Below, piece by piece: positions 10,211 to 46,498 of a stretch of DNA of 64,000 nt. The DNA is taken from the NCBI GenBank assembly GCA_903927755.1, contig CAIYOD010000139.1, positions 185-64,184 on the forward strand, given 5' to 3'. Within the stretch, counting starts at the first letter, position 1. Every line of letters starts with the position of its first letter. A program made the translations under genes and the position numbers. Origin of the DNA: an uncultured Thermoleophilia bacterium (GTDB taxonomy: Bacteria > Actinomycetota > Thermoleophilia > UBA2241). The notes under the pieces were generated by a model. That model had not been told where the DNA came from. It saw nothing but the letters and a program-made list of their open reading frames with translations, and searched no databases.

Positions 10211-10439
10211 CCGCACGTCCGGCATGCGATCGGGCAGCAGCCGGAGCGGGCCCGCGGTCGAACGCACATGCAGACACGCTCCAGGCCCGCCGTCAGTGGG
10301 AATACACGACACCGGACCACCGGGGCGCACGATGAGAAGAACGACCAGAGACAGCCACGGTTCGACAAGGGGCGGCGCACCCGCCATCGGCGTCCGCTTG
10401 CCCAAGGTCAGAACGCCCCTCGAGAGACCCTACTCCACC

Positions 10440-12053: not shown

Positions 12054-12073
12054 CCGCCGGCGACGACCACTCC

Positions 12074-30061: not shown

Positions 30062-31603
30062 TCAGCCGCCGATGAGAAGGCGCAGCGCGCCTTCCGCGGC
30101 ATCGAGGAGCGGGCCCGGGAAGAGACCCACGAGCACGACGCCGAGCGCCGCGACCGTGACGGCGGTGATCACGCCGACCTGCGAGCTCTCGACTTCTTCC
30201 GTGACCTCCGCCCCTTCGGGCGCCTCCCGGAAGTACATGTACCAGACGACGCGCAGGTAGTAGTACGCGGACACGGCGCTCATCACGACGGCGATGATGG
30301 CGAGCCACGTGAGGTCCGCCTGGATGACCGCCGTGAACAGGTAGAACTTGCCCCAGAAGCCGACTGTCGGCGGGATGCCCGTCAGCGACACCATGAACAG
30401 CGCCATGAGGATCGCCGGCCACGGCAGGGTGCGGCCCAGGCCGGCGAGGCCTTCCAGCGAGTAATCGTACTCGCGGCGCGCCCGGATCCAGATGAGCACG
30501 CCGAAGGCGCCGAGGTTCATGAGCGCGTAGGCGGCCAGGTAGAACAGGATGGCGCTGACGCCGAGCGTGTCCCCGCTCTTGCCGGCGGCGATGATGCCCA
30601 GAGTCAGGTAGCCGGCGTGGGCGATGCTCGAGTAGGCGAGCATGCGCTTGAGGTTGCGCTGAGGCAGCGCGAGCACGTTCCCCACCACCATCGTGAGGAT
30701 CGCGAGAATGATCATGATGTGGCCCCAGTGGGTCCAGTCGGCGCCGGCGGCCATCAGGAAGAGCTTGGCGAAGCCGAGGAAGGCGGCGGCCTTGACGCCG
30801 GTGGCCATGAAGGCGGTGACCGGGGTGGGCGCCCCTTCGTAGACGTCAGGCGCCCAGCTGTGGAACGGCACGGCCGAGACCTTGAAGCCGAAGCCGGTGA
30901 CGACGAGCACGAAGGCGACCACCAGGAAGCCGTCGGCGGCGAGCCCGTTCAGCTGCAGGCCGGCGAGGCCGGCGGCGATGCCCGAGTAGGTCGTCGCGCC
31001 GGTCGCCGCGTACAGCAGCGCCAGGCCGAAGGCCAGGATCGCCGACGAGAAGGCGCCGGTGACGAAGTACTTGAGCGACGCCTCGGTCGACTTCTCGTCG
31101 CGCCAGATGTAGCCGGCGAGGATGTAGGTCGGCAGCGACATGAGCTCGAACGAGACGAAGAAGGCGATGATGTCGGTGCTGATCGCCATGCCGATCATGC
31201 CGGTGACGATCAGAAGGAGCAGGCCGTAGAACTCGCCGCGCGCGGCCTGCCGCCTGGCGAGGTATGCATCGGAGAGCAGCACGGCCAGGACGCCGATGGC
31301 GCAGAACAGCACGACCGCGTACAGCGCGTACCGGTCGTGCCCGATCATCCCCGCGAAACCGACGACGGCCTCGCGGCGACCGAACGTCAGGCCCCCGGTG
31401 AAGACACGCCAGACGGCGAAGCCCGCGGTCCACTGGCCCCACTGCCCGATGGCCACGGCGGCTCCGCACAGCAGGCCGGCCACGGCGATCCAGGCGAGCC
31501 CGCCCTTGCGCTTGAGGAAGAGGTCGGCGAGGAAGACCACGATCGCGGCGACCGCGACGACGACACCGGGGAGGATCACGGAGACGGTGTTGTTCAGCGG
31601 CAT
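30062..31603 (-). CDS. nuoN: NADH:quinone oxidoreductase subunit N
   Basis: 513-aa polytopic antiporter-like protein, last gene of the nuo operon and directly abutting nuoM. Confidence 0.9.
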   Translation of the reverse strand: MPLNNTVSVILPGVVVAVAAIVVFLADLFLKRKGGLAWIAVAGLLCGAAVAIGQWGQWTAGFAVWRVFTGGLTFGRREAVVGFAGMIGHDRYALYAVVLFCAIGVLAVLLSDAYLARRQAARGEFYGLLLLIVTGMIGMAISTDIIAFFVSFELMSLPTYILAGYIWRDEKSTEASLKYFVTGAFSSAILAFGLALLYAATGATTYSGIAAGLAGLQLNGLAADGFLVVAFVLVVTGFGFKVSAVPFHSWAPDVYEGAPTPVTAFMATGVKAAAFLGFAKLFLMAAGADWTHWGHIMIILAILTMVVGNVLALPQRNLKRMLAYSSIAHAGYLTLGIIAAGKSGDTLGVSAILFYLAAYALMNLGAFGVLIWIRARREYDYSLEGLAGLGRTLPWPAILMALFMVSLTGIPPTVGFWGKFYLFTAVIQADLTWLAIIAVVMSAVSAYYYLRVVWYMYFREAPEGAEVTEEVESSQVGVITAVTVAALGVVLVGLFPGPLLDAAEGALRLLIGG

Positions 31604-33196
31604 CTAGAACAGCCCCCTGACTGAGTCGACGAGCTGCGCCAGTGCGCCGATGCCCGCGCTCGTGTCGTTCAGCGACGGGGTGACGCGGTGGAGGATCACT
31701 TGCACGGGCACGTGCAGGAACTCGAGGAACGTCTGCGGGTAGACGCCCATCCAGATGACGAAGACGACCAGCGGGAGCAGCGAGACGATCTCGCGCAGGC
31801 CGAGGTCCTTGAGCGCGAACGAGGGCTTGACCTCGTCGTCGCCGCGGTCGTTGAACATCGTGCGCTGGAACATCCAGAGGAGATAGGCGGCGGCGAGGAT
31901 CACGCCGAGCGCCGCCACCGCCGCCATCCAGCGCGAGTACTCGAAGACACCGAAGAGGCTGAGGAACTCGCCCACGAAGCCGCTCAGCCCCGGCAGGCCC
32001 AAGGAGCCGAAAGCGAAGAACAGCAGGAAGCCGGCGGCAATCGGCATCGGCTTGGCGAGCGAGCCCATGTCGGCGATCAGCCGCGTGTGCGTGCGCTCGT
32101 AGATGAAACCGACCATGAGGAAGAGGGCGCCTGTGAGGAACCCGTGGCTGAGCATGACGAGGATCGCGCCCTCGATGCCCGCGGCGTTGCCGACGAGGGC
32201 GATGCCCGCGAAGATGCCCGCCGTGACGAAACCCATGTGGCTCACGCTCGAGTAGGCGACGAGCTTCTTGAGGTCCTTCTGCATCAGCGACACCAGCGCG
32301 CCGTACACGATCGCGACCACCGACAGGCCGACGACCCACGGGACGAAGGTGACGGCGGCGTCCGGGAAGAACGGCAGGCAGAAGCGCAGCATGCCGTAGC
32401 CGCCCATCTTCAGGAGGACGCCGGCCAGGATGACGGACCCTGCCGTCGGCGCCTCGACGTGCGCGTCGGGGAGCCAGGTGTGGACCGGGAACATCGGCAC
32501 CTTGATGGCGAAGGCCACGAAGAAGGCGAGGAACGCCCAGAACTGCAGGTGGTAGGAGTACACGACCTTGCTGAGCGCCTGGATGTCGAACGTCAGCGCC
32601 CCGCTCGAGTCCTTGACGTAGTACACGACGGCGATGATCGCCAGCAACATGAGCAGGCTGCCGATGAGCGTGAACAGGAAGAACTTGATCGCCGCGTAGA
32701 TGCGCCGCGGACCACCCCACACGCCGATGATGAAGTACATCGGGATGAGCATGGCCTCCCAGAACACGTAGAAGAGGAAGAGGTCGGTGGCGCAGAACAC
32801 GCCGACCATGCCGACCTGGAGCAGCAGCAGCGAGACGAAGAAGCCCAGCTCGCGGTCCTTGACGTAGTTCCAGCTGGCGATGATGACGATCACGCCGAGC
32901 AGCGTCGTGAGGAAGACGAGCAGGGCGGCGATGCCGTCGACGCCCATCCCGTAACGGATGTTGAGCGGCTTGATCCAGCTGATGTTCTCGGCGAACTGCA
33001 TGCCGGGCAGCTTGGTCTTGAAGGCGAAGAGCATCCACGCCGACAGCGCGAACGCGGCCAGCGTCACGATGAGCGAGATCACCTTGTAGACGACCGGCTT
33101 GCCACGGCCGACGAGCAGGATCAGCACCACGCCGGCGAGCGGCAGGAAGGTGATGACGGAGAGCAGCGGGAACCCGATCTGATCGCTCCAGCTCAT
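31604..33196 (-). CDS. nuoM: NADH:quinone oxidoreductase subunit M
   Basis: 530-aa antiporter-like membrane protein (MSWSDQIGFPLLSVITFLPLAG...), positioned between nuoL and nuoN. Confidence 0.9.
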   Translation of the reverse strand: MSWSDQIGFPLLSVITFLPLAGVVLILLVGRGKPVVYKVISLIVTLAAFALSAWMLFAFKTKLPGMQFAENISWIKPLNIRYGMGVDGIAALLVFLTTLLGVIVIIASWNYVKDRELGFFVSLLLLQVGMVGVFCATDLFLFYVFWEAMLIPMYFIIGVWGGPRRIYAAIKFFLFTLIGSLLMLLAIIAVVYYVKDSSGALTFDIQALSKVVYSYHLQFWAFLAFFVAFAIKVPMFPVHTWLPDAHVEAPTAGSVILAGVLLKMGGYGMLRFCLPFFPDAAVTFVPWVVGLSVVAIVYGALVSLMQKDLKKLVAYSSVSHMGFVTAGIFAGIALVGNAAGIEGAILVMLSHGFLTGALFLMVGFIYERTHTRLIADMGSLAKPMPIAAGFLLFFAFGSLGLPGLSGFVGEFLSLFGVFEYSRWMAAVAALGVILAAAYLLWMFQRTMFNDRGDDEVKPSFALKDLGLREIVSLLPLVVFVIWMGVYPQTFLEFLHVPVQVILHRVTPSLNDTSAGIGALAQLVDSVRGLF

Positions 33197-33197
33197 G

Positions 33198-35096
33198 TCA
33201 GCTCCCCCACACCCAGGCGAGGACGACGACGAGCGCGATCATGCCGCCGAACACGTACAGTGCGTAGTTCTGCACGCGGCCGGTCTGGATGGGCCGCAGC
33301 CGGTCGCCGATCCAGCCCCACAGCAACGCGATGCCGTTGACGGCGCCGTCGATGATCTTGGCGTCGACGAAGGTCCAGAGCCAACCGGCGAAGCCGAGCG
33401 TGGCGCCGACGGGCACGACCGCGTAGATGTCGTCCATGTAGACCTTGTTGAGGCTCGCCTTGTACGCCCACGGCACGCGCTCGGCGATGCGGCCGGGGAC
33501 GTCGGTCTGGCGCATGTACAGCCACCAGGCGATGGCGATGCCGACGAGCGCCAGCACCAGGGAGACTCCCATGAGCGCGCCGCCCTCGCCGATCCACGTG
33601 AACGGCTCGTGCTCCAGGTCGAAGAACACCGGCTCGAGGAAGCCGTGCAGCCAGCCCGACTCGGGCGGCACGCCGACCAGCAGGCCGAGCCCGAGCGCCG
33701 GTATCGAGAGAAGGATGAGCGGCACGGTCATGACCGGCGGCGACTCGTGGATGTGCGCCTGCACCTCGGCGTCGGAGCGGTTCTCGCCGAAGAACGTGAG
33801 GAAGATGAGGCGGAACACGTAGATGCCGGTGAGCAGCACGATGAGGAGCCCGACGGCCCAGACCAGGTAGTAGCCGTCGATGAAGGTCGCACCGAGGATC
33901 TCGTCCTTCGCCCAGAAGCCGGCGAAGGGGATGACGCCCACCATCGAAAGAGCGCCGATGAGCATCGTCCAGAACGTGATGGGGATCTTCTTGCGCAGCC
34001 CGCCCATCTTGCGCATGTCCTGCTCGCCGCCCATGGCGTGGATCACCGAGCCGGAGCAGAGGAACATGAGGCCCTTGAAGAAGCCGTGCGCGAACAGGTA
34101 GAAGATCCCGGCCACCCACGCTCCGGCCCCGAGGGCCACGAACATCAGCCCCAGGGACGAGATGGTGGAGTAGGCGATCACCTTCTTGATGTCGTTCTGG
34201 GTGATCGCGATGTACGCCGCGAAGATGGAGGTGAAGATCCCCACCACCATGACCACGGTCATCGCCGTGTCGCTCTGGATGAACAGCGGGTAGGAGCGCG
34301 CGACCATGTACACGCCGGCGTTGACCATGGTGGCGGCGTGGATGAGCGCGCTGACCGGCGTGGGGCCTTCCATGGCGTCCGGGAGCCAGACGTGCAGGGG
34401 GAACTGCGCGCTCTTGCCGATCGCGCCGGTGAAGAGCAGCAGGCAGATCCAGGTCATGAGGCTCGGCGCGATCTCGCCCTTCTCCGCCGCCTCGAACACG
34501 CCGGTGAACTGCAGCGTGCCGGTGGCGACGAAGATCGCGAACATCGCCAATGTGAAGCCGAAGTCGCCGACTCGGTTGACGATGAACGCCTTCTTGCCCG
34601 CCTGACTCGCGCTCTTCTTGCGGAACCAGAAGCTGATCAGCAGGTACGAGCAGAGGCCGACGCCCTCCCAGCCGAGGAACAGCAGGAGGTAGCTGTCGGC
34701 GAGGATGAGCACGAACATCGCGAACATGAACAGGTTGAGGTAGGCGAAGAACCGGTAGTAGCCCTCGTCCCCGTGCATGTAGCCGATCGAGTAGTAGTGC
34801 ACGAGCATGCCGATCACGCCGACGACCAGCAGCATGACGCCGGTCAGCGTGTCGACCTGGAAGCCCCACGGCACCGTGAACTGGCCGGCGGCGATCCAGG
34901 TGAAGGCGTTCCAGACGAACGTCTCCTCCTGGTGGCGGAACGCCCACTCGAAGCCGTAGACGGACAGCACGGCCGAGATGGTCACCATGGCCACCGGGAA
35001 GATGTGCGCGTGCTTGCCCCAGCGCTTGCCGAACAGCAGCGTCACGATGAACCCCAGCAGCGGCAGCAGCGGGATGAGCGCGACGGCGATCTTCAT
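33198..35096 (-). CDS. nuoL: NADH:quinone oxidoreductase subunit L
   Basis: Antiporter-like subunit with a long C-terminal extension. The preferred start is ATG at 35096 (MKIAVALIPLLPLLGF), preceded by GGAGGGGA. The ORF track starts it at 35114. Confidence 0.9.
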   Translation of the reverse strand: MKIAVALIPLLPLLGFIVTLLFGKRWGKHAHIFPVAMVTISAVLSVYGFEWAFRHQEETFVWNAFTWIAAGQFTVPWGFQVDTLTGVMLLVVGVIGMLVHYYSIGYMHGDEGYYRFFAYLNLFMFAMFVLILADSYLLLFLGWEGVGLCSYLLISFWFRKKSASQAGKKAFIVNRVGDFGFTLAMFAIFVATGTLQFTGVFEAAEKGEIAPSLMTWICLLLFTGAIGKSAQFPLHVWLPDAMEGPTPVSALIHAATMVNAGVYMVARSYPLFIQSDTAMTVVMVVGIFTSIFAAYIAITQNDIKKVIAYSTISSLGLMFVALGAGAWVAGIFYLFAHGFFKGLMFLCSGSVIHAMGGEQDMRKMGGLRKKIPITFWTMLIGALSMVGVIPFAGFWAKDEILGATFIDGYYLVWAVGLLIVLLTGIYVFRLIFLTFFGENRSDAEVQAHIHESPPVMTVPLILLSIPALGLGLLVGVPPESGWLHGFLEPVFFDLEHEPFTWIGEGGALMGVSLVLALVGIAIAWWLYMRQTDVPGRIAERVPWAYKASLNKVYMDDIYAVVPVGATLGFAGWLWTFVDAKIIDGAVNGIALLWGWIGDRLRPIQTGRVQNYALYVFGGMIALVVVLAWVWGS

Positions 35097-35124
35097 GTAC
35101 CCGGTCCCCTCCACGTGACCCCCG

Positions 35125-35433
35125 TCAGCCCTTGAGCTCGTCGAAAGTGTCGGTCTGCACGGTGCGCCTGTTGCGGTAGTTGGCGATCACGATCGCCAGG
35201 CCGACGGTCACTTCGGCGGCGGCCAGCACGATGATGAAGAGCGCGAAGAGCGTGCCCGCACCCTTGGCGCCGGCGCGGAAGTTGGCGGTCGCGACCAGAG
35301 CCAGGTTCACGGCGTTGAGCATGATCTCGAGGCTCATCACCACGAGGATGACGTTGCGGCGCGCGAGCACGCCGAACGCGCCGATGCAGAACAGCAGGAA
35401 CGAGAGCAGCAGCCACCAGTACAGGGCGTTCAC
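35125..35433 (-). CDS. nuoK: NADH:quinone oxidoreductase subunit K
   Basis: GTG start at 35433 preceded by GAAGGAG. The product reads VNALYWWLLLSFLLFCIGAFGVLARRNVILVVMSLEIMLNAVNLALVA.... The ORF-track entry 35125..36060 is an over-extension through nuoJ in another frame. Confidence 0.9.
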   Translation of the reverse strand: MNALYWWLLLSFLLFCIGAFGVLARRNVILVVMSLEIMLNAVNLALVATANFRAGAKGAGTLFALFIIVLAAAEVTVGLAIVIANYRNRRTVQTDTFDELKG

Positions 35434-35942
35434 GGGCGCTCCTTCTCGCGCGTCGCCAGCACGATGGCGCCGATCATGGCGGCGACGAGCACGAGCGAGA
35501 CGAGCTCGAACGGGAACACGTAGCGGTCGAAGATGAGCCGGGAGAGCTGGCGCAGGCCCGGTGTCAGCGACTTGTCGCCGATCTGGCCGATGTCGGACGA
35601 CAGCGCAACGAAGGCGAGCACCGCGGCGCCGACGAGCGCCACGACGGCGGCGATCGCCGTCTGGCGGTTGAAGAAGAGGTCGTACCCGCCGTGCTGCACC
35701 TCGGTGAGCATGATCGCGAAGATGATGACGATCGAGATGGCGCCGACGTACACGAGGATCTGGATGATGGCCACGAGCGGCGCGTTGAGCAGCGCGTAGG
35801 CGAACGCCACGCCGAGGAAGCAGAACACCATCGAGACGGCGGAGTACATGATCTTCCTGAACAGCACGACGCCGAGGCCGCAGACGAGCACCCACGCGGC
35901 CACGATGACGAAGAACCAGGGATGGAAGTCGCCGCCGGGCAT
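35430..35942 (-). CDS. nuoJ: NADH:quinone oxidoreductase subunit J
   Basis: 170-aa protein with about 5 TM helices (…IQILVYVGAISIVIIFAIML…). It overlaps nuoK by 4 nt and the upstream fusion gene by 1 nt. Confidence 0.9.
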   Translation of the reverse strand: MPGGDFHPWFFVIVAAWVLVCGLGVVLFRKIMYSAVSMVFCFLGVAFAYALLNAPLVAIIQILVYVGAISIVIIFAIMLTEVQHGGYDLFFNRQTAIAAVVALVGAAVLAFVALSSDIGQIGDKSLTPGLRQLSRLIFDRYVFPFELVSLVLVAAMIGAIVLATREKERP

Positions 35943-38416
35943 CAGGCCTCTCCCCCCGGGTCGTCCAGCGAAACCGGGTCGTCCTTGATCGGCTGCCAGA
36001 CCCAGCCCAGGCCACGCTCGGCGTCGAGGGCGTGCGGGACGAGATCGGCGACGGTCTCACGCAGCGAAGCGACCGGGCGCGACTCGCGGATGTAGAGCGA
36101 CTCGCGCGACATCGTCGTGCGGCTGTAACCGGCGAGCTCGAAGAAGTCGGTCTGCTCGAGAGCGTCGTAGGGACAGACCTCGACGCACTCGCCGCAGAAG
36201 ATGCAGCGGCTCTCGTCGAGGTCGTAGCTGCCGAGGATGCGCGGGTTGGTCTCGATGGAGCCCGTGGGGCACGTCTCGGCGCACTTGCCGCAGCTCACGC
36301 AGCCGACCAGCTGGAGCGGCAGGTTGTCGGCGGTGCTGACGATGGTGTCGAAGCCGCGGTCCATGTTGTCGTAGCAGCTCGACCCGACCTCCATGCGGCA
36401 CACGCGCACGCAGCGGCCGCAATTGATGCAGCGATTGGGCTCGCGCATGATGAAGTCGTGGCGGAAGTCGGCCGGGTAGTCGTGGGCGTCGCCACCGTGG
36501 AAACGATTCTTGAACACCTCGTACTCGATGCCGTACCGCTGCAGGTCGCACTTGCCGTTGGCCGGGCAGTAGCACTGCAGGCAGAGCTCGGCGCCGCGGA
36601 CGGCCTCGTCCTCACTGAAGCCGAGCTCGATCTGCGTGAAGTTGGTCTTGCGGTCGCCCGGCTCGAGCTTGGGCATCTCGGCCGGCGGGCTGGGATGCGA
36701 CACGTCGGTGGTCATGTCGATGAAGACCGGCGGGATCTCGGCCATGCGCGCGAGGCGCGGGTCCAGATCGGTCCGGTCGCTCAGCGCGTTGAAGAACGGC
36801 GTGGCCTTGAGCTCGGCGAGCGACTGTGAGAGGTCCGCCATGTCCTCGCCGCGCAGGAAGGCGTCCATGCTCCAAGCGGCCTTCTTGCCCTGGGCGACGG
36901 CTTGGATCACGGTCTGCGCGCCGAGCACGGCGTCGCCGCCGGCGAACACGCGCGGGTCCTCCGTCTGGAAGGTCCAGTCGTCCACCTGGATGGTGCGCCA
37001 CTTGGTGCGCTTGACGCCCTGCTCCTCGCTGGTGCCGTCGAGATCGGGGAACTGGCCGATGGCGGCGATGACCTGGTCGCACTCGATGACGAACTCGGAA
37101 CCCTCGACGGGTACGGGGCGGCGGCGGCCGGAGGCATCGGGCTCGCCGAGCTCCATGCGCTGCATCTCGATGCCGGTGACCTTGTTGGCGGCGTCGGCGA
37201 TCACGCGCACGGGGGCGCACAGGAGCTCGAGCTTGACGCCCTCCTCCTCAGCCTCGTCGACCTCGGTGTGGTGCGCCGGCATCTCCTTGCGGGAGCGGCG
37301 GTAGAGGCAGGTGACCTCGGCCGCGCCTTTGCGCACGCTGGTACGGCAGGCGTCCATGGCGGTGAAGCCGCCGCCGATCACCACGACCTTCTTCCCCACG
37401 TGCACGTCGCCGTTGAGCTCCAGCTCACCGAGGAAGTCGACCGCGGTGACGACGCCCTCGGCGTCCTCGCCGTCGCAGCCCATGCCGTTGCTGTTGAACG
37501 CGCCGAGAGCGAGGAACACGGCGTCGTACTCGGCGGTGAGCTCCTCGAGCTGGTAGTCGACGCCAAGCCGGCTGTTCGGCTGCAACTCGACGCCCATGCG
37601 CCACAGCACGTTGATCTCCTTGTCCAGGAGGTCGCGCGGCAGGCGGTAGCTCGGGATGCCGTAGCGAAGCATGCCGCCCGGCTTGGGCAGGGCCTCGAAG
37701 ATCTTGACGGAGTGGCCCTCGAGCCGGGCGTAGAAGGCGGCGGCGAGGCCGGCGGGCCCGCCGCCCACGATGGCGATCTTCTTGCCGGTGTCGGCCTTGG
37801 GCTCGACCGGCAGCAGCAGCTCGCCCGTCTGCTCCTCGTCGATCGTCTGATCGGCCATGAAGCGGTGGAGCTGGCAGATGGTGATGGGGTGCTCGACGAG
37901 CTGGCGGCGGCAGGGACCCTCGCACGGTCGCGGGCACACGCGCCCGAGCACGGCCGGGAACGGCAGGTCCTCGCGCAGCTTGCGCACGCCGTTCTTGTAG
38001 TCCTTGTGCGCGATGTAGTCGAGGAACTGCGGGATCTTGATGTGCGTCGGGCAGGCGTCGCGGCAGGGCGGCGTGCAGAAGGAGTTGTGGTCGCTGAGCA
38101 GCAGCTCGAGGTAGAGGTGCCGCATGGCGCGGACCTTCTCGGTGCTCGTCTTGACGACCATGCCGTCGCTCACGGCCGCCGAGCAGCTCGGGACCATCTT
38201 GCGGGCGCCCTCGACCTCGACGATGCACATGCGGCACGCCGCCGTGGCGGGCAGGCGCGGCTCGTAGCAGAGCGTCGGGATGTGGACGCCGATGCGCTGG
38301 GCGGCCTCGAGGATGGTGTCGCCGCGGTCGCAGGCGACCTCCTGCCCGTCGATGGTGACCAGCACCTGATCGGGTCGCGGCTTGGCCTGCGTGATGTTCT
38401 CGACGGTGGTCGCCAT
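35942..38416 (-). CDS. Fusion protein. It has a NuoG-type N-terminal [2Fe-2S] domain, then a GltD-type FeS/FAD/NAD(P)H oxidoreductase module, then NuoG-type [4Fe-4S] motifs, then the C-terminal half of NuoI.
   Basis: 824-aa single ORF with four recognisable segments. The [2Fe-2S] region is TLCYEPRLPATAACRMCIVEV. The GltD Fer4_20-like region is FCTPPCRDACPTHIKIPQF...GRVCPRPCEGPCRR. The dinucleotide fold is KIAIVGGGPAGLAAAFY, with a second GKKVVVIGGGFTAMD. NuoG-like CYCPANGKCDLQ, NRCINCGRCVRVC and CVSCGKCAETCPTGSIE follow. The terminal SRCIFCGECVEVCPYDALEQTDFFELAGY matches NuoI motif 2. Confidence 0.85.
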   Translation of the reverse strand: MATTVENITQAKPRPDQVLVTIDGQEVACDRGDTILEAAQRIGVHIPTLCYEPRLPATAACRMCIVEVEGARKMVPSCSAAVSDGMVVKTSTEKVRAMRHLYLELLLSDHNSFCTPPCRDACPTHIKIPQFLDYIAHKDYKNGVRKLREDLPFPAVLGRVCPRPCEGPCRRQLVEHPITICQLHRFMADQTIDEEQTGELLLPVEPKADTGKKIAIVGGGPAGLAAAFYARLEGHSVKIFEALPKPGGMLRYGIPSYRLPRDLLDKEINVLWRMGVELQPNSRLGVDYQLEELTAEYDAVFLALGAFNSNGMGCDGEDAEGVVTAVDFLGELELNGDVHVGKKVVVIGGGFTAMDACRTSVRKGAAEVTCLYRRSRKEMPAHHTEVDEAEEEGVKLELLCAPVRVIADAANKVTGIEMQRMELGEPDASGRRRPVPVEGSEFVIECDQVIAAIGQFPDLDGTSEEQGVKRTKWRTIQVDDWTFQTEDPRVFAGGDAVLGAQTVIQAVAQGKKAAWSMDAFLRGEDMADLSQSLAELKATPFFNALSDRTDLDPRLARMAEIPPVFIDMTTDVSHPSPPAEMPKLEPGDRKTNFTQIELGFSEDEAVRGAELCLQCYCPANGKCDLQRYGIEYEVFKNRFHGGDAHDYPADFRHDFIMREPNRCINCGRCVRVCRMEVGSSCYDNMDRGFDTIVSTADNLPLQLVGCVSCGKCAETCPTGSIETNPRILGSYDLDESRCIFCGECVEVCPYDALEQTDFFELAGYSRTTMSRESLYIRESRPVASLRETVADLVPHALDAERGLGWVWQPIKDDPVSLDDPGGEA

Positions 38417-38418
38417 GC

Positions 38419-40332
38419 TCAGGCCTCAGCTCCCGAAGCGCCGACCACAGCCTGCTCGACGCCCGACCGTACTTTGACGGCGTCGAACTTGCAGACCTGG
38501 CGGCAGGTGTCGCACTTGATGCAGTTGGCGACGTCGATGACGTGCAGCTGCTTCTTCTCGCCGGTGATGCACGACGTGGGGCACTTCTTGGCACAGAGCG
38601 TGCAGCCGGTGCAGGCGTCGGCGTCGATGTAGTACGTGATGAGCGACTTGCACTTGCCGGCCGGGCAGCGCTTCTCGCGGATGTGGGCCTCGTACTCGTC
38701 GCGGAAGTACTTGATGGTCGTGAGCACCGGGTTCGGGGCGGTGCCGCCGAGCGCGCAGAGGGAGCCCTCGATGATGTAGTGGCCCATCTCCTCGAGCAGC
38801 TCGATGTCGCCCTCGCGACCGTCGCCCTCGATGATGCGGTCGAGGGTCTCGAGCATGCGCTTGGTGCCGAGGCGGCAGGGGACGCACTTGCCGCACGATT
38901 CCTTCTGCGTGAAGTCGAGGAAGAAGCGCGCGAGGTCGACCATGCAGGTCTCTTCGTCGACCACGACCATGCCGCCGGAGCCGACGATGGCGCCGGTCGC
39001 GGCGAGGCTCTCGTAGTCGACCGGCGTGTCGAGCAGGTGTGCCGGGACGCAGCCGCCGGACGGGCCGCCGAGCTGGACGGCCTTGAACTGCTTGCCGCCC
39101 TTGATGCCGCCGCCGACGTCGAAGATCAGGTGGCGGAGACTGGAGCCCATGGGCACCTCGACGAGCCCGCCGTTGACGATCTTGCCGGCGAGGCTGAAGG
39201 CCTTGGTGCCGCGGCTGGTCTCGGCGCCGAGCGTAGCGTAGGCCTCGGCGCCGTTCTTGACGATCCACGGGACGTTGGAGAACGTCTCGACGTTGTTGAT
39301 GTTCGTGGGCTTGCCCCAGAGGCCGCTGACCGCCGGGAACGGCGGCCGCGTGCGCGGCATGCCGCGCTTGCCCTCGATGGAGGCGATGAGCGCCGTCTCC
39401 TCGCCGCAGACGAAGGCGCCGGCGCCGAGCTTGAGATGCAGGTTGAACTCCCAGCCGGTGCCGAAGATGTCGTTACCCAGATAGCCGCGCTCCTCGGCGG
39501 CGGCGACCGCCATGGTGAGGCGCTTGACGGCCGTCGGGTACTCGGCGCGCACGTACACGTAGCCCTCGTGGGCGCCGATGGCGTAGCTGCCGATGATCAT
39601 GCCCTCGATGACGGCGTGCGGGTCGCCCTCGAGGATGGAGCAGTCCATGAACGCGCCGGGGTCGCCCTCGTCGGCGTTGCAGATGAGGTACTTCTCGTCG
39701 CTCTTGGACTGGTTGGCGAATTTCCACTTGACGCCCGTGGGGAACCCGGCGCCGCCGCGGCCGCGGATGCCCGAGTCGGTGATCTCTTCGATGATCCACT
39801 CGGGAGTCTTCTCCGTGAGAGCCATCCGGGCGGCCTCGTACCCGCCGACGGCGACGTAGGCGTCGATGGTCTCGGGGTTGATGACGCCGACGTCGCGCAG
39901 CGCGATGCGCGTCTGCAGCTTGTAGAAGCCGATGTCGCGCCAGTCGCGGATGCGCTCGCCGGTCTGCTCGTCCTTGTAGAGGAAGCGCTCGACCGGCTGA
40001 CCGCCCTTGAGGTGCTCCTCCACCACCTTGGTGACGTCCCTGGGCTTGAGGTGGCCATACAGCGTGTCGTCGCTGAGCACCACGACGGGGCTCATCGAGC
40101 ACAGGCCGTGGCAGCCGATGATGCTGACCTCGACCTTGTCGCCGAGACCGGCCGTCTGGACCTCCTGCACGAACGCATCGTAGACGGCCATGGAGCCGGC
40201 GAACAGGCAGGCGGTGCCGGCGCAGACCTTGACGTTGTAGCCGCCGCCCGGACGCTCGCCGACGCTCACGTTGCGAGCCTCGGTCTCGGGAGCCGGGATG
40301 GTGATCTCGTCAGTCATGGTGCCTCTGCTCAC
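38419..40332 (-). CDS. NuoF-like NADH-binding flavoprotein of the HydB/HndC/StnC type. It has an extra N-terminal thioredoxin-like [2Fe-2S] domain and a C-terminal 2x[4Fe-4S] domain.
   Basis: 637-aa ORF. N-terminal VKVCAGTACLFAG...IIGCHGLCSMSP. FMN/NADH motifs GRGGAGFPTG and ICNADEGDPGAF. N3-type cluster ESCGKCVPCRLG...SLCALG. C-terminal CTGCTLCAKKCP and CIKCDTCRQVC. Confidence 0.9.
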   Translation of the reverse strand: MSRGTMTDEITIPAPETEARNVSVGERPGGGYNVKVCAGTACLFAGSMAVYDAFVQEVQTAGLGDKVEVSIIGCHGLCSMSPVVVLSDDTLYGHLKPRDVTKVVEEHLKGGQPVERFLYKDEQTGERIRDWRDIGFYKLQTRIALRDVGVINPETIDAYVAVGGYEAARMALTEKTPEWIIEEITDSGIRGRGGAGFPTGVKWKFANQSKSDEKYLICNADEGDPGAFMDCSILEGDPHAVIEGMIIGSYAIGAHEGYVYVRAEYPTAVKRLTMAVAAAEERGYLGNDIFGTGWEFNLHLKLGAGAFVCGEETALIASIEGKRGMPRTRPPFPAVSGLWGKPTNINNVETFSNVPWIVKNGAEAYATLGAETSRGTKAFSLAGKIVNGGLVEVPMGSSLRHLIFDVGGGIKGGKQFKAVQLGGPSGGCVPAHLLDTPVDYESLAATGAIVGSGGMVVVDEETCMVDLARFFLDFTQKESCGKCVPCRLGTKRMLETLDRIIEGDGREGDIELLEEMGHYIIEGSLCALGGTAPNPVLTTIKYFRDEYEAHIREKRCPAGKCKSLITYYIDADACTGCTLCAKKCPTSCITGEKKQLHVIDVANCIKCDTCRQVCKFDAVKVRSGVEQAVVGASGAEA

Positions 40333-41090
40333 CCCTTCGCACCGCCGACCTCTTCCATGAGGTCGCGGATGATCTTGCGTGTCTGGTCAGGGGTGAGGCC
40401 GCCGTAGGTCTGGTCGCCGATGCGCATGACGGGAGCCTGCGAGCAGGCGCCCATGCAGGCGACGGACGACAGCGTGAACTTCATGTCCGTGGTCGTCTTG
40501 CCGTCGGCGATCCCGAGTTCTTCCTCCAGAGCCTCGGTGATCTGGACCGCTCCCGCGACGTGGCAGGCGGTGCCGTGGCAGACGTCGATGATGTACTCGC
40601 CGACCGGTGAGAGCCGGAACTGGTTGTAGAAGCTGGAGACGCCGTAGATCTGGCTCAGCGAGACGCCGGTCTGCAGGCTGAGCTCCTGGAGAGCGACGCG
40701 CGGCAGATAGCCATAGACCTCCTGCGCGTTCTGCAGCATGGCGATGAGGCCGGTGCCGTGCTCGTAGTAGTCGTCGAGCACCGGCTGCAGATCCTTGAGC
40801 TCGATGCCCTGCTGCGCCGCGAGGCGCGCCTCGGCGATGCGCGCCGCGTTGGGCACCGGCAGACGGTACTTGCTCGTGTGATTGACGCGGATGACCTGCA
40901 CCGGGCAGTTGCTCTCGCACAGGGTGCAGGAGCGGCAGCGCGGCTCGCCGCTCGCGGGGTCGATGACCACGCGGAAGAGGCCGCGGCTGCGCGCCGGCAG
41001 CGCCTCGCGCTGCTCCGGGTACTGGACGGTGAGCTTCTTCTTGGGCAGATGGCTCATCGTCTGCCGCATGGCCTTGAACATGCCGAGCAT
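40329..41090 (-). CDS. Fusion protein: N-terminal half of NuoI (first [4Fe-4S] motif) joined to a complete NuoE-type [2Fe-2S] domain
   Basis: 253-aa single ORF. LTVQYPEQREALPARSRGLFRVVIDPASGEPRCRSCTLCESNCPVQVIRV matches the NuoI N-terminal half. IAMLQNAQEVYGYLP...DVCHGTACHVAG...SVACMGACSQAPV matches NuoE. The ATG overlaps the nuoH stop by 1 nt, and the stop overlaps the next start (ATGA). Confidence 0.85.
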   Translation of the reverse strand: MLGMFKAMRQTMSHLPKKKLTVQYPEQREALPARSRGLFRVVIDPASGEPRCRSCTLCESNCPVQVIRVNHTSKYRLPVPNAARIAEARLAAQQGIELKDLQPVLDDYYEHGTGLIAMLQNAQEVYGYLPRVALQELSLQTGVSLSQIYGVSSFYNQFRLSPVGEYIIDVCHGTACHVAGAVQITEALEEELGIADGKTTTDMKFTLSSVACMGACSQAPVMRIGDQTYGGLTPDQTRKIIRDLMEEVGGAKG

Positions 41091-42208
41091 CAGGCGCTCA
41101 CCACCGGCTGGCGCTCACGCTGCTTGCGCAGGCGGCGCTTGAGGATCGGGTCGAACAGGCCCACGAAGGCGAAGAAGGAGACCCAGCCGAAGACCAGGAG
41201 GCCCCACTTCCAGCTCGGTACCCACAGGATGATCGCCGCCGTGGCGAGGATGTTGACGAGCCCGAGCGGGATGAGGATCTTCCAGGCGAACGCCATGAGC
41301 TGATCCACCTGCAGGCGCGGGATGCTGAAGCGGATCCAGACCAGCGCCGACACGAGCACGTACGTCTTGGCGAGGAACCAGAAGATACCGATCCACTCGA
41401 TGCCCCAGAACTGGATGGCGCCGGCCCAAGGGCCCATCCAGCCGCCGAAGAACAGCGTCACGGCGACCATGGACATGATCGTGAGGCCCGCGTACTCGTT
41501 GAGGTAGAACATGCCGAAGCGCATGCCCGAGTACTCGGTGGCGTAGCCGGCGACCAGCTCGGACTCGGACTCGGGCAGGTCGAACGGGCCGCGGTTAAGC
41601 TCGGCGATCGAGGCGATGTAGAACATGAGGAAGGTGAACGGCGCGTAGAAGCCGATCCACTCGTAGTTCGCCTGGAAGGCGACGATGACGTCGACGCGCA
41701 GCGACCCGACGATCATCGCCACGATGAGCAGGCTGAGGAGCATCGGGATCTCGTAGCTGATCATCTGGGCGGCGGCGCGCAGCGCGCCGACCAGCGAGTA
41801 CTTGTTGCGCGACGCCCAGCCGCCCATGAGGATCGAGAGCGTCGTGAAGCTGGTGATGGCGACGAGGAAGATGACGCCGACGTTGAGACTCGTCGCCATG
41901 AAGCCGCCGGTGTACGGGATCACGAGCTGGATGGAGACGGCGCCGATCATCACCGTCACCGGCGCGAGCGTGAACAGCACCGGGTCGGCGAGCAGCGGAC
42001 GGAAGTCCTCCTTGCCCATCATCTTGAAGGCGTCGGCGACGCTCTGCAGCACGCCCTGCGGGCCGGTCCGGTTGGGGCCGAGCCGGTCGCCGATGAACGC
42101 CATGAAGCGGCGCTCGTAGAAGATGTTGACCAGCGCCGCGACGAACACCACCGCGTAGGCGATGACGACGAAGAGGACGGCCCTGAGGATGTCGACGAGG
42201 ATGTCCAC
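41090..42208 (-). CDS. nuoH: NADH:quinone oxidoreductase subunit H
   Basis: 372-aa polytopic protein. FYERRFMAFIGDRLGPNRTGPQGVLQSVADAFK matches the NuoH/ND1 N-terminal signature. Confidence 0.9.
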   Translation of the reverse strand: MDILVDILRAVLFVVIAYAVVFVAALVNIFYERRFMAFIGDRLGPNRTGPQGVLQSVADAFKMMGKEDFRPLLADPVLFTLAPVTVMIGAVSIQLVIPYTGGFMATSLNVGVIFLVAITSFTTLSILMGGWASRNKYSLVGALRAAAQMISYEIPMLLSLLIVAMIVGSLRVDVIVAFQANYEWIGFYAPFTFLMFYIASIAELNRGPFDLPESESELVAGYATEYSGMRFGMFYLNEYAGLTIMSMVAVTLFFGGWMGPWAGAIQFWGIEWIGIFWFLAKTYVLVSALVWIRFSIPRLQVDQLMAFAWKILIPLGLVNILATAAIILWVPSWKWGLLVFGWVSFFAFVGLFDPILKRRLRKQRERQPVVSA

Positions 42209-43423
42209 TTAGCGGTCGATGCCTCCGAGCACGAGGTCGATGCTGCCCGAGATGGCCACCGCGTCGGCGATCTTGTTGCCGCTGAGGAGCTTCGGGAACA
42301 GCTGCAGGTTGCAGAAGCAGGGGTCGCGGTACTTGAGCCGGTACGGATACCGCGACCCGTCGCTCTCGATGTACGTGCCGTACTCGCCGCGCGGGTTCTC
42401 CTGGCCGACGTAGGCGGAGCCCGGCGGCGGCGTGATGACGTAGGGAGCGCGCAGCGAGCCCAGCTGGACCGGGCCTTTAGGGAGCATGTCCAGGCACTGT
42501 TCGATGATCTTGAGACTCTCACGCATCTCGTCCATGCGGCAGCGATAGCGGTCGAAGATGTCGCCGTGCTGCGCCGTGATGACCTCGAAGTCGAGCTCCG
42601 GGTACACCGAGTACGGCCGCGTGCGGCGCAGGTCGAGGTCGATGCCGGAGGCCCGCGCGTTGGGGCCGGTGATGCCGTAGTCGACCACGTCCTGCTGGGT
42701 GATGACGCCCTTGGCCTGCGTGCGCTGCAGGAAGACGGCGTTCGTGTCGACCAGCGCCTCGTACTCCTTGATCTTCTTCGGGAACATCTTGAGGAAGTCG
42801 CGGCACTTCTCCACCCAGCCGTCGGGGAGGTCGTAGCGCACGCCGCCGAAGCGATAGTAGTTGAACATCATGCGCGCGCCGGTGAGCTCCTCCATGAGGT
42901 CGAGGATGATCTCGCGGTCGCGGAACATGTAGAAGACCATCGCGGTGCCGAGCGGCGAGAGGTCGGCGGTGAACGTGCCGACCGCCACAAGGTGGCTGGC
43001 GATGCGCATGAGCTCGCCGGTGATGACGCGGATGAACTCCGCCCGCCGCGTGACCTGCATGCCGGCGAGCTTCTCGACGGTCATGACGTAGGCCCACTCG
43101 CAGTTGATGCTGGCGAGGTACTCCGTGCGGTCGACGATCGGGATGTACTGGAAATACGTGCGCTTCTCGGCCAGCTTCTCCTTGCAGCGATGCAGGTAGC
43201 CGATGACCGGGATCACGTCCTTGACGAGCTCGCCGTCGAGGGTCACGACCAGGCGCAGCACGCCGTGCGTGCTCGGATGCTGCGGCCCCATGTTGACGAC
43301 GACCTCGTTGAAGGCCAGGCCGTCGACGTCGGAGCCCTCGCCGCGCGCCGTCGACTCCTCGATGCGGCGCAGGGCGAGCTTCACGGCCTCGTCCGGCTCG
43401 GGAGTCTCGAACTGGTCATACAT
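42209..43423 (-). CDS. nuoD: NADH:quinone oxidoreductase subunit D
   Basis: Start at ATG 43423 (MYDQFETPEP). Contains NMGPQHPSTHGVLRL and the C-terminal SIDLVLGGIDR. The ORF track extends it to 43483. Confidence 0.9.
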   Translation of the reverse strand: MYDQFETPEPDEAVKLALRRIEESTARGEGSDVDGLAFNEVVVNMGPQHPSTHGVLRLVVTLDGELVKDVIPVIGYLHRCKEKLAEKRTYFQYIPIVDRTEYLASINCEWAYVMTVEKLAGMQVTRRAEFIRVITGELMRIASHLVAVGTFTADLSPLGTAMVFYMFRDREIILDLMEELTGARMMFNYYRFGGVRYDLPDGWVEKCRDFLKMFPKKIKEYEALVDTNAVFLQRTQAKGVITQQDVVDYGITGPNARASGIDLDLRRTRPYSVYPELDFEVITAQHGDIFDRYRCRMDEMRESLKIIEQCLDMLPKGPVQLGSLRAPYVITPPPGSAYVGQENPRGEYGTYIESDGSRYPYRLKYRDPCFCNLQLFPKLLSGNKIADAVAISGSIDLVLGGIDR

Positions 43424-43910
43424 GCGGGTGGTTCTCCGCGAGGTCGACGTAGTCTTTGCGCAGCGGGTGGCCGACGAAATCATCCTTGAGCAGAATGCGG
43501 CGCAGGTCGGGGTGGCCGGTGTAGACGATGCCGACCATGTCCCAGGACTCGCGCTCGTGCCAGTCGGCCGCCGGCCAGACGCCGGTCACCGTGTCGACCT
43601 CCGGCTTGGCGCGCGGCAGGTCGACATGCAGCTCGAGATAGGTGTTCGTCTTCCAGGAGTACACGTGGTAGACGCTCTCGAACGAGGTGCCGCGGTCGAC
43701 GCCGGCGATCCAGTTGAGCGTCTCGTAGCCGGCGTCGGCGTCGGCCTTGAGGCGCGCGGCGACGTCCTTGAGCTTCGCCGGCGTGCAGCGGGCGACGACG
43801 GTGTCCGGCTCCTGGATGCGCACGTCGTCCAGCTCGCCGGCGAAGCGCTCCACGAGGAGCGCCGCGATGGCGTCCATGCTCATCGGATTGCTGCCGACCT
43901 GCAGGCCCAT
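43416..43910 (-). CDS. nuoC: NADH:quinone oxidoreductase subunit C
   Basis: The in-frame ATG at 43910 gives MGLQVGSNPMSMDAIAALLVERF.... Contains PAADWHERESWDMVGIVYTGHPDLRRIL (NuoC signature). The upstream part of ORF 43416..44255 overlaps nuoB in another frame. Confidence 0.85.
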   Translation of the reverse strand: MGLQVGSNPMSMDAIAALLVERFAGELDDVRIQEPDTVVARCTPAKLKDVAARLKADADAGYETLNWIAGVDRGTSFESVYHVYSWKTNTYLELHVDLPRAKPEVDTVTGVWPAADWHERESWDMVGIVYTGHPDLRRILLKDDFVGHPLRKDYVDLAENHPHV

Positions 43911-43912
43911 GA

Positions 43913-44482
43913 TCAGGCGTCCGATTCCGAAGCGACGTCGGAGGCCGGCGCGAGCGCCTCGGCGGCGGCCGGCTTGGAGGGCACGAACTGGTACTGCTGG
44001 ATCTTGCCCTGCAGCTCCAGCAGGCCCTGGAACAGCGCCTCGGGGCGCGGCGGGCAGCCGGGGATGTACACATCGACCGGCACGATCTTGTCGACGCCGT
44101 TGACCACGTTGTAGCCGTCGTAGAACGGGCCGCCGCTGGTGGCGCAGGCGCCCATGCTGATGACCCACTTGGGCTCCGACATCTGGTCGTACAGGCGCTT
44201 GAGCACCGGCGCCATCTTCTCGTTGACGGTGCCGGCCACGATCATGAGGTCGCACTGCCGCGGCGTGGGGCGGAACACCTCCATGCCGTAGCGGGCGATG
44301 TCGTAGCGGGCGAACCCCGACGTGAGCATCTCGATGGCGCAGCAGGCCAGGCCGTACGTGAACGGGAAGACCGAGTGCGAGCGCGCCCAGCTGAAGATGA
44401 AGTCGGCGGTGGTGGTGATGACGTTCGGCTCGCTGAAGTGCTCGAGCTTCGGGTACCTGACCGCCTTGACGCGCTCACTCAT
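43913..44482 (-). CDS. nuoB: NADH:quinone oxidoreductase subunit B
   Basis: The start at 44482 ([12 protein letters not shown]) overlaps the nuoA stop (ATGA). N2-cluster cysteine motifs [19 protein letters not shown] and IPGCPP are present. Confidence 0.9.
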
Positions 44483-44847
44483 GCCCACTCGAGGGCCCCC
44501 TTGCGCCAGGCGTACAGCAACCCGAAGGCGAGCACGGCGATGAACAGCAGCATCTCGATGAACCCGGCGGTGCCGAGGCCGCGGAAGACGAGCGCCCACG
44601 GGAACAGGAAGGCCGACTCGACGTCGAAGACGAGAAAGAGGAGACCGTAGACGAAGTAGCGGACCGCGAACGGCTGCCACGGATTGCCGACCGGCGGGAT
44701 GCCGCATTCGTAGGGCTGCAGCTTCTCCGGCGTGAGGTGGCTCGGATTGATGAGCTTGGAGAACAGAAGGATGACGACGACCAGCGCGGCTCCGGCGACG
44801 ATGAAGAGCCAGACATACAGCCAGTCTGTGAGGTATGCATTCGTCAT
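44479..44847 (-). CDS. nuoA: NADH:quinone oxidoreductase subunit A
   Basis: The ATG at 44847 gives [25 protein letters not shown].... Contains YECGIPP and [15 protein letters not shown] motifs. Confidence 0.9.
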
Positions 44848-44928: not shown

Positions 44929-45004
44929 ACCCCCTTCTACACCGGTGGGGGTATACGGGTCTCTCGCGGATTTGCAGGTATTTCCTCCGCACGAGGAGGC
45001 CGCG

Positions 45005-45033
45005 TTGCACTTCGGCCCCGCGGCTCGTACGAT
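45005..45033 (+). promoter_or_regulatory. Candidate sigma70-type promoter for tatA-tatC
   Basis: TTGCAC-N17-TACGAT, 38 nt upstream of the tatA ATG. GAGGTGA lies just before the start. This is a pattern match only. Confidence 0.3.
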
Positions 45034-45070
45034 GGAGCGGCATCGCTACCACGACCGAGGTGACCCCCAC

Positions 45071-45640
45071 ATGAGCATCGGCCCCGCCGAGATCATCATC
45101 GTCCTCGTGCTCGCCCTGCTGGTCTTCGGACCCAAGCGGCTCCCGCAGATGGGCAAGTCGCTCGGCAAGGGCGTGCGCGAGTTCCGCAAGGCCGCGGACA
45201 CGGCCAAGACCGAGCTCGGTCTGGGCGAGGTCACCGACCAGATCAACGAGGTCAAGTCGACCTTCACCGAGCCTCTCAAGGGCGTCACCAGCACGATCGG
45301 CGACCTCAAGTCGAGCGTCGATCTCAAAGCGAGCATCGAAGCGCCGGCCGGCGCGGTCGCGGCGGCAGGCGCCGCCGGAGCCGCCGCGAGCGCGAGCACC
45401 CCCAGAAGCGGCTCCGCGCCGGCGTCACCGACGCCGGCTGCCGGAGCGTTCGACGAAGGACCGGAGACGCCGGCGGTCACCCCGCAGACGGCATTCGCCG
45501 ACGTTCCACGATCGCCGGCGGCGCCGCAGGAGCCGGTCGCCGAAGCGCCCGTCGATTCACCGGAGGCGCCGGTCGCGCCCAAGGCGCCGGAAGGCCCTGT
45601 GGCCGCCGGCTCGCCGGCGGGTCCCGCGACCGGAGCCTGA
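45071..45640 (+). CDS. tatA: Twin-arginine translocase TatA/E-family protein with a long Ala/Pro-rich C-terminal tail
   Basis: [41 protein letters not shown] is the canonical TatA TM plus amphipathic helix. About 120 further low-complexity residues follow. Confidence 0.9.
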
Positions 45641-45644
45641 CCGC

Positions 45645-46451: not shown

Positions 46452-46498
46452 ACGCGCGCGGGGCGTGCCGCGTCCCCTCTCGGGTAGAATGAGGAGCC

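Follow-up and report, generated by a model that had tools for sequence, protein, structure and literature searches.

Gene map of the nuo locus

We analysed an operon for complex I (NADH:quinone oxidoreductase, Nuo) of an uncultured Thermoleophilia bacterium, in which a flavoprotein module of the Bfu type appears to sit inside the gene for subunit NuoI. The operon lies in a 64,000-nucleotide stretch of contig CAIYOD010000139.1, hereafter the window, and all coordinates below are positions in it. Thirteen co-directional genes fill positions 30062-44847 of the minus strand, and both outer coordinates were already exact in the initial annotation, a reading of the DNA made without database searches. 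The gene order is nuoA-B-C-D-H-[NuoI N-half::NuoE-like]-[HydB/BfuB-like]-[2Fe2S::GltD::FeS::NuoI C-half]-J-K-L-M-N. Neighbouring genes are spaced by -8 to +10 nucleotides, which fits one translationally coupled operon.

The initial annotation had described an 11-subunit core with a split NuoI in this same order, and Pfam and NCBIfam models confirm it by identifying nuoA, B, C, D, H, J, K, L, M and N together with every claimed domain. All 11 core subunits (A, B, C, D, H, I, J, K, L, M and N) were matched, NuoI only as two complementary halves. For nuoK, the open reading frame first listed (35093-35416) is in the wrong frame, and the real gene is the one given here. The genes and their domains, with lengths and positions in amino acids (aa), are the following.

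44479-44847, minus strand: nuoA, 122 aa (Pfam Oxidored_q4, E 2.6e-37)
43913-44482, minus strand: nuoB, 189 aa, carrying the ligands of cluster N2 (Pfam Oxidored_q6)
43416-43910, minus strand: nuoC, 164 aa (Pfam Complex1_30kDa, E 6.6e-41)
42209-43423, minus strand: nuoD, 404 aa, the quinone-site subunit (Pfam Complex1_49kDa; motifs GPQHPSTHG and DRTEY)
41090-42208, minus strand: nuoH, 372 aa (Pfam NADHdh, E 2e-106)
40329-41090, minus strand: fusion of the NuoI N-half to a NuoE-like domain, 253 aa
40863-41090, minus strand: NuoI N-half, aa 1-76 of the 253-aa protein (NCBIfam NuoI positions 3-66; C52-x2-C55-x2-C58-x3-C62-P)
40782-40862, minus strand: linker of 27 aa from the NuoI N-half to the NuoE-like domain, of low conservation
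40353-40781, minus strand: NuoE/BfuC/StnA-like thioredoxin-fold [2Fe-2S] domain, aa 104-246 (Pfam 2Fe-2S_thioredx, E 8e-47)
38419-40332, minus strand: flavoprotein of the BfuB/HydB/StnB type, 637 aa (Pfam domains and solved-structure matches)
35942-38416, minus strand: four-part fusion ending in the NuoI C-half, 824 aa
38117-38368, minus strand: N-terminal [2Fe-2S] domain (N1b-like) of the 824-aa protein, aa 17-100, followed by His110 (Pfam Fer2_4; aligns with StnC residues 3-101)
36842-38089, minus strand: GltD/NfnL-like insertion, aa 110-525 (Pfam Fer4_20 and Pyr_redox_2; NCBIfam PRK12814)
37040-37411, minus strand: predicted NADPH site within the GltD insertion, aa 336-459 (motif GGGFTAMDA...LYRRSRKEMPA)
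36251-36601, minus strand: HydA/NuoG-type iron-sulfur (Fe-S) domain, aa 606-722 (Pfam Fer4_Nqo3; NCBIfam FeFe_hydrog_A; aligns with StnC)
35942-36250, minus strand: NuoI C-half, aa 723-824 (NCBIfam NuoI positions 69-114, NF004537 positions 103-167; C738-x2-C741-x2-C744-x3-C748-P)
35430-35942, minus strand: nuoJ, 170 aa (Pfam Oxidored_q3)
35125-35433, minus strand: nuoK, 102 aa (Pfam Oxidored_q2, E 2e-27)
33198-35114, minus strand: nuoL, 638 aa (Pfam Proton_antipo_N and Proton_antipo_M)
31604-33196, minus strand: nuoM, 530 aa (Pfam Proton_antipo_M and Oxidored_q5_N)
30062-31603, minus strand: nuoN, 513 aa (Pfam Proton_antipo_M)

The residues expected of a quinone-reducing core are in place. NuoB has the N2 ligands (tandem Cys47/Cys48, Cys113 and Cys143). 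The two motifs of NuoD contain the His and Tyr of the quinone site, which we take to correspond to His38 and Tyr87 of T. thermophilus. The 637-aa BfuB-like protein consists of an N-terminal [2Fe-2S] domain, a flavin mononucleotide (FMN)/NADH site, the [4Fe-4S] cluster N3/B1, a hinge with Cys556/561 and a C-terminal 2x[4Fe-4S] domain; in StnB, the linker equivalent to this hinge binds Zn. The GltD-like insertion of the 824-aa protein is complete, with two [4Fe-4S] clusters, a flavin adenine dinucleotide (FAD) site and an NADPH site, and the HydA/NuoG-type domain behind it carries the Cys612/615/617/623 motif plus two CxxCxxCxxxC motifs.

The split NuoI and the origin of the inserted module

TIGR01971, a NuoI model of 121 positions, matches aa 9-74 of the 253-aa protein at its positions 3-66 and aa 724-769 of the 824-aa protein at its positions 69-114, the overall C-half match covering aa 724-796. 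Each half contains one CxxCxxCxxxCP motif. An in silico chimera of aa 1-76 of the 253-aa protein and aa 723-824 of the 824-aa protein gave a single alignment to residues 30-142 of human NDUFS8 (74.8 bits, E 8e-20) with one gap of 1 residue, located at the junction; the N-half alone, which corresponds to NDUFS8 residues 30-95, scored about 37 bits. The complementary model coverage and the contiguous alignment after joining bear out the claim that NuoI is split.

The interruption maps to the surface loop that separates the two ferredoxin half-motifs. Because both motifs contribute ligands to each cluster of a 2x[4Fe-4S] ferredoxin fold, neither NuoI half should function alone. The interval from nuoH to nuoJ contains no intact nuoI, either in the window or in the related loci, so that without both fusion proteins the core lacks an operon source of the subunit carrying N6a and N6b. 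The four Cys of the N-half are 100% conserved among 50 sequences, as are the Cys of the C-half motif. The 27-aa linker, with 37-100% identity and a nearly neutral ratio of non-synonymous to synonymous substitutions (dN/dS, 0.4-0.9), is probably a flexible tether. The precomputed Pfam annotation of the 253-aa protein lists only PF01257, and the NuoI halves thus go unrecognised.

For all three inserted proteins, the best matches among solved structures are Bfu enzymes, with E-values of the trio against StnABC/NfnABC-type enzymes of 1e-169 to 1e-243. Residues 17-744 of the 824-aa protein align continuously with 9bov_A (E 1e-192), StnC (8oh5_C, E 8e-169) and NfnA (9n5u_A, E 5e-160). Against subunits of the BfuB type (7t2r_B, 9bov_B, StnB 8oh5_B, NfnB 9n5u_B and HydB), the BfuB-like protein reaches 780-812 bits, with about 805-812 for the first four, and about half as much, 407 bits, against T. 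thermophilus Nqo1, while the NuoE-like part is best matched by NfnC (9n5u_C), 9bov_C and StnA (8oh5_A). The domains and cluster ligands typical of the Bfu family are all present, namely those for FMN, the B1 [4Fe-4S] cluster, the additional [2Fe-2S] at the N-terminus and the 2x[4Fe-4S] at the C-terminus of BfuB, and for a [2Fe-2S] in BfuC. The feature that sets Nfn-Bfu apart, an NfnL/GltD-like FAD and predicted NADP(H) domain after the N-terminal [2Fe-2S] of BfuA, is found here as well.

The likeness to StnABC and NfnABC (PDB 8oh5, 9n5u and 9bov) extends to the number of subunits, their domains and the gene order, since the inserted E-like, F-like and G-like genes follow the order of stnABC. 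The GltD unit is placed, as in StnC, between the conserved His and the next Cys motif of the N5-like cluster, and its boundaries agree with those in the StnC paper. Structures and alignments therefore agree with the domain-for-domain correspondence to StnABC that the initial annotation had proposed. There are also clear differences. StnABC is soluble and forms a tetramer via an FdhF-like C-terminal domain, whereas here the NuoI C-half stands in its place and the NuoE-like subunit bears the NuoI N-half. Among Nfn-Bfu A subunits, this C-terminal NuoG/FdhF-like domain is long in StnC of S. ovata, shorter in NfnA of T. sibiricus and absent here.

An operon of E-F-G order placed in frame into the nuoI of an A-B-C-D-H-I-J-K-L-M-N operon would yield both the observed gene order and the two fusions. 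Capture of a three-gene Nfn-Bfu operon inside the nuoI of an 11-gene nuo operon is thus probably the most parsimonious origin, in line with the earlier proposal that a soluble flavoenzyme was independently recruited onto the 11-gene core. We reject a derivation from canonical NuoEFG, against which speak the Bfu-type signatures together with the GltD insertion site common to StnC. As to the core itself, NuoD scored 348 bits against NdhH of NDH-1, 335 against Nqo4 and 300 against NuoD of M. smegmatis, which hints weakly at a core lineage other than the canonical one; the matches of NuoH to solved structures are ambiguous in this respect.

That complex I may carry a Bfu module has been proposed before. 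In the nearest precedent, Schut et al. 2022 (PMC9304861) predicted Nuo-Bfu, a 14-subunit complex I with BfuABC replacing NuoEFG, and reported it in Geobacter and relatives (Proteobacteria), Deferribacteres, Planctomycetes and Nitrospirae, not in Actinobacteria. Like the system described here, Nuo-Bfu combines the membrane and quinone modules of complex I with a Bfu flavoprotein having the extra [2Fe-2S] and the C-terminal 2x[4Fe-4S], and menaquinone is its presumed acceptor. Its module, however, is found where E-F-G normally lie, in a 14-gene operon with an intact nuoI, and its BfuA is NuoG-like and devoid of the NADP(H)-binding GltD domain. Here, in contrast, BfuA is of the Nfn type, the operon has 13 genes with the module between nuoH and nuoJ, NuoI is split and joined to the module by two covalent fusions, and the carriers belong to another phylum.

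With canonical 14-subunit complex I, the system shares the 11 core subunits, the N2 ligands, the quinone-site residues and N-module folds homologous to NuoE, NuoF and the N-terminal part of NuoG. It differs in its gene order, in the split NuoI, in the lack of the large molybdopterin-like domain of NuoG, and in its extra predicted FAD/NADPH domain and extra clusters. The same 11-subunit core is found in the NDH-1 of cyanobacteria and chloroplasts, whose NdhH is the top-scoring solved homologue of NuoD by a small margin, in Fpo with FpoF and in Mbx-like complexes. These take their input from ferredoxin, F420H2 or a GltD subunit substituting for NuoI, and none has a Bfu trimer inside NuoI. A GltD-related flavoprotein bound to a membrane complex resembling complex I was noted in Mbx-like operons of Thermotoga by Degli Esposti 2015 (PMC4758237). 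Our literature searches returned this remark and the Nuo-Bfu prediction, and no description of the split-NuoI/Bfu arrangement; the term Nuo-Bfu was not found in the later papers of the literature searched.

Distribution, conservation and loss of individual sites

At least 120 full-length relatives of the 824-aa protein share 75-92% identity with it, the named ones coming mostly from Thermoleophilia metagenome-assembled genomes (MAGs), and the 253-aa fusion has at least 120 with 65-96% identity. In a broader HMMER search of 1.84 billion 50%-identity representatives, the NuoI tail was covered by only one other full-length protein (P0121, 64% identity), and a few short fragments with 66-91% identity also belong to the 824-aa family. 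The fusion is confined to a single cluster at the 50% level. The remaining strong matches were StnC-like proteins, most of them of 1000-1250 aa, that aligned only to about aa 745; the shorter ones that we inspected were cut at contig ends.

A scan of one genome per GTDB species revealed 73 species-level loci, all in MAGs and none in a cultured isolate. All but one (72/73) are labelled Thermoleophilia, Actinomycetota or Actinomycetes, the exception being a 2.7-kb contig in a bin labelled Deltaproteobacteria. According to the record titles, they come from soil, palsa, bog, fen, lake sediment, digesters and anaerobic membrane bioreactors. The initial annotation had called for a synteny comparison across related genomes, and the order A-B-C-D-H-IE-F-G-J-K-L-M-N is kept in each of the 73 loci long enough to show it. 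Pairwise dN/dS was 0.17-0.34 for the three inserted genes, similar to the 0.07-0.48 of the core genes, and purifying selection acts on every domain, both NuoI halves included. In public records, the fusion proteins are hidden under labels such as 'NADH-quinone oxidoreductase subunit E', 'FAD-dependent oxidoreductase' and 'formate dehydrogenase major subunit'.

It is barely credible to us that two separate enzymes, a soluble Nfn-Bfu and an 11-subunit ferredoxin-type complex I, simply share an operon here, or that the locus is an artefact or a pseudogene. The former could appeal only to the general habit of operons to mix functions, and two independent enzymes are excluded by the existence of NuoI solely as two halves fused to Bfu subunits. 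An assembly artefact or pseudogene is ruled out by the recurrence of the locus in 73 independent MAGs from many studies, with intact frames and under purifying selection.

Nearly all Cys predicted to ligate clusters are 97-100% conserved across 44-50 orthologs. Conservation reaches 100% for Cys171/176/212/216 of the NuoE-like domain, for Cys50/61/64/78 of the N-terminal [2Fe-2S] domain of the 824-aa protein and for all Cys of its HydA/NuoG-type domain, and it is 97-100% for the cluster Cys of the BfuB-like protein. Within the same range lies the ferredoxin branch, which is complete (C-terminal 2x[4Fe-4S], N-terminal [2Fe-2S] and Zn hinge of BfuB, and the BfuC cluster). StnC beyond about aa 697, on the other hand, is an inactive FdhF-like domain, whose clusters make up a branch described in the StnABC paper as a non-functional remnant needed for tetramer stability. 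StnC-like alignments of the 824-aa protein end at about aa 745, and the NuoI C-half begins where StnC passes into the FdhF-like domain, which is missing here.

As judged from these alignments, it is the dead-end branch of the A subunit, and not the ferredoxin branch, to which the predicted quinone chain has been attached. One hypothesis of the initial annotation held that the N6a/N6b/N2-quinone chain had been swapped in for the ferredoxin branch of a bifurcating enzyme. This is incorrect in detail, because the BfuB ferredoxin branch is intact and what was replaced is the FdhF-like domain of StnC.

The intact branch bears on whether the complex is obligately coupled to ferredoxin, as in the mode proposed for Nuo-Bfu by Schut et al. 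2022 (PMC9304861), with the BfuBC core either confurcating or bifurcating. In one version, NAD(P)H and reduced ferredoxin would be co-oxidised, giving a larger driving force for pumping with the low-potential menaquinone; in the other, the electrons of NADH would be divided between menaquinone and ferredoxin. The full BfuB signature with its conserved Cys, a dN/dS of 0.04-0.25 in the C-terminal domain and the anoxic nature of many source samples (anaerobic bioreactors, digesters, bog, fen and lake sediment) are in favour of such a coupling. Yet no Nuo-Bfu has been characterised, and sequence does not separate obligate coupling from independent entry. Moreover, the potential of menaquinone is far above those of NADH and ferredoxin, so that coupling is not thermodynamically required. 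We regard obligate coupling as unlikely.

On the side of the GltD insertion, one ligand has changed. StnC Lys170, an unusual ligand of cluster C7, was reported to be strictly conserved among StnC homologues. In the 824-aa protein it corresponds to His184 and StnC Ala167 to Cys181 (aa 181-184, window 37867-37875), and both residues are invariant in 24 family members. This suggests that the cluster beside FAD may be differently ligated and differently tuned. The Arg of the FAD site (StnC R239) and the YRR...EMPA motif are kept.

The second Rossmann motif, GGGFTAMDA...LYRRSRKEMPA, is the same stretch as in StnC and 9bov_A and is strictly kept in 40 of the 48 sequences of the 824-aa family, the window included. 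It is degenerate in the other eight (loci L033, L034, L054, L056, L061, L062, L063 and L065) and also in P0121. In these eight, identity falls to 38-73% in the NADPH subdomain (38-60% in seven of them) and is 79-92% in the Fe-S domains. The losses occupy at least four separate positions in a neighbour-joining tree of NuoD and NuoH. The FMN loop of the BfuB-like protein, RGRGGAGFPTG, is kept in 42 of 44 sequences and is degenerate in L066 and L054. L066 (DIWP01000060.1, Thermoleophilia UBA6103) is the mirror image of the eight, with an FMN/NADH loop reading RTRVGDPGSVG and an intact NADPH motif.

This pattern suggests two separately dispensable entry sites that would feed one indispensable Fe-S wire. 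The dual NADH/NADPH input put forward in the initial annotation thereby gains comparative support. In L054 (PLTW01000035.1, a bog_752 MAG), the BfuB-like protein and the whole 824-aa domain series form one reading frame with an Ala/Pro-rich linker, at about 8000-12500 in the coordinates of that locus.

The losses of the NADPH motif could also be read to mean that the enzyme is an ordinary NADH:menaquinone complex I whose GltD domain is a structural leftover that binds no NADPH in vivo. In the eight loci the motif decayed independently and the complex persisted, and the change of the Lys170 ligand to His points in the same direction. We find this reading rather improbable nonetheless, since the motif is strict in the 40 other sequences and matches StnC and 9bov_A, the NADPH subdomain has a dN/dS of 0.16-0.23, and L066 retained the NADPH motif while its FMN loop was lost.

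Regarding the surroundings of the operon, positions 1-29000 of the window hold a large gene cluster for cell-envelope polysaccharide and nonulosonic acid, with NeuB, a cytidylyltransferase, a PglD-like acetyltransferase, a DegT aminotransferase, epimerases, glycosyltransferases and Wzz. The same region encodes two beta-helix proteins, one with an F5/8 type C domain. Upstream of nuoA, on the opposite strand (44945-48787), lie a putative tatA frame (44945-45640), tatC (Pfam TatC) and the gene for a class A penicillin-binding protein. A YmdB-like gene lies on the other side of the operon, downstream of nuoN; both it and the upstream penicillin-binding protein gene recur in L001, a 77%-identical locus. 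The rest of the window, with its envelope polysaccharide, Tat and penicillin-binding protein genes, says little on physiology.

No promoter or terminator was detected in scans of the two ends of the operon, and the Rfam and tRNA scans of the 64-kb window were negative as well. The G+C content at third codon positions is 0.81-0.98 in the nuo genes (at least 0.89 except in the nuoA frame) and 0.79-0.98 in the other retained frames of the window, which is a weak hint of high expression.

A proposed NAD(P)H:menaquinone complex I

Considering all the above results, we believe it more probable than not, as far as sequences can tell, that the operon encodes a single proton-pumping NAD(P)H:menaquinone complex I with an Nfn-Bfu trimer of the StnABC type as its input module. 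The three-gene operon of the trimer would have been inserted in frame into nuoI of the 11-gene nuo operon. The NuoI halves, carried by the BfuC-like and BfuA-like subunits, would then co-fold into a 2x[4Fe-4S] NuoI (N6a and N6b) over NuoB and NuoD, and this NuoI would act as the covalent anchor of the input module on the quinone module.

In such a complex, NADH would be oxidised at the FMN of the BfuB subunit and its electrons would pass through cluster B1 to the clusters of the A subunit. NADPH would be oxidised at the FAD of the GltD insertion, feeding the same A-subunit wire through the two GltD clusters. The joint wire would exit via N6a/N6b and N2 to menaquinone, and the membrane arm would pump protons. 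We assume menaquinone as the acceptor because it is the quinone of cultured Thermoleophilia. With its intact ferredoxin-binding domain, BfuB may also take electrons from reduced ferredoxin as a third donor, and transhydrogenation of the Nfn type may survive as a side activity.

Several observations weigh against this proposal. The repeated loss of the NADPH motif means that the site is not essential everywhere, and the predicted NADPH specificity derives from motif identity with StnC and NfnA. L054, whose FMN loop is degenerate, whose hinge lacks Cys556/561 and whose NADPH motif is degenerate in part, fits poorly with two dispensable entries. A simple two-donor model has no need of a fully conserved ferredoxin domain, which hints at ferredoxin coupling. 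Finally, an AlphaFold2 monomer of the 824-aa protein, built on a 24-sequence alignment, reached a mean predicted local distance difference test score (pLDDT) of 57.8, with values below 50 in the C-terminal Fe-S region; it was too poor for a fold search or cluster placement and was left unused.

The direction of electron flow is a further point. The main role could be the reverse one, with menaquinol and the proton-motive force reducing NADP+ (and NAD+ or ferredoxin), the complex serving as an NADPH source or as a transhydrogenase coupled to the membrane potential, the latter being among the hypotheses of the initial annotation. Complex I is known to be reversible, and the Fe-S wire would connect FAD, FMN and the quinone site. 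Nitrospirae and Planctomycetes include nitrite oxidisers and anammox bacteria, in which reverse electron flow is plausible. Nuo-Bfu has been reported in both groups. Nevertheless, the window gives no hint of lithotrophy, the flanks of the operon holding envelope polysaccharide, Tat and penicillin-binding protein genes, and lineages without the NADPH motif retain the whole complex. A mainly reverse role seems quite unlikely to us.

We also considered a four-terminal redox hub, in which a membrane-bound Nfn coupled to the proton-motive force would connect NAD(H), NADP(H), ferredoxin and menaquinone on one flavin/Fe-S bifurcation core, with quinone reduction or reverse flow driving or gating the partition between NADPH and ferredoxin. 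We judge it improbable; if true, it would represent an undescribed type of energy-linked transhydrogenase and ferredoxin reductase.

Coming back to the proposed NAD(P)H:menaquinone complex I, the locus looks like a second, independent gain of a soluble flavoprotein input module by complex I. The position of the captured operon inside nuoI makes the capture event unusually readable, and the debated modular origin of the N-module can thus be tested by comparison. Metabolic reconstructions would be expected to score the complex I of these genomes as being without NuoI and NuoG.

The carriers are, according to the record titles, uncultured Thermoleophilia of soils, peat, sediments and anaerobic reactors. 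Should the NADPH site be functional, theirs would be, to our knowledge, the first complex I in which NADPH has an entry of its own. Cells hold NADPH more reduced than NADH, and an NADPH entry could therefore add driving force for menaquinone-dependent organisms living in low-energy habitats.

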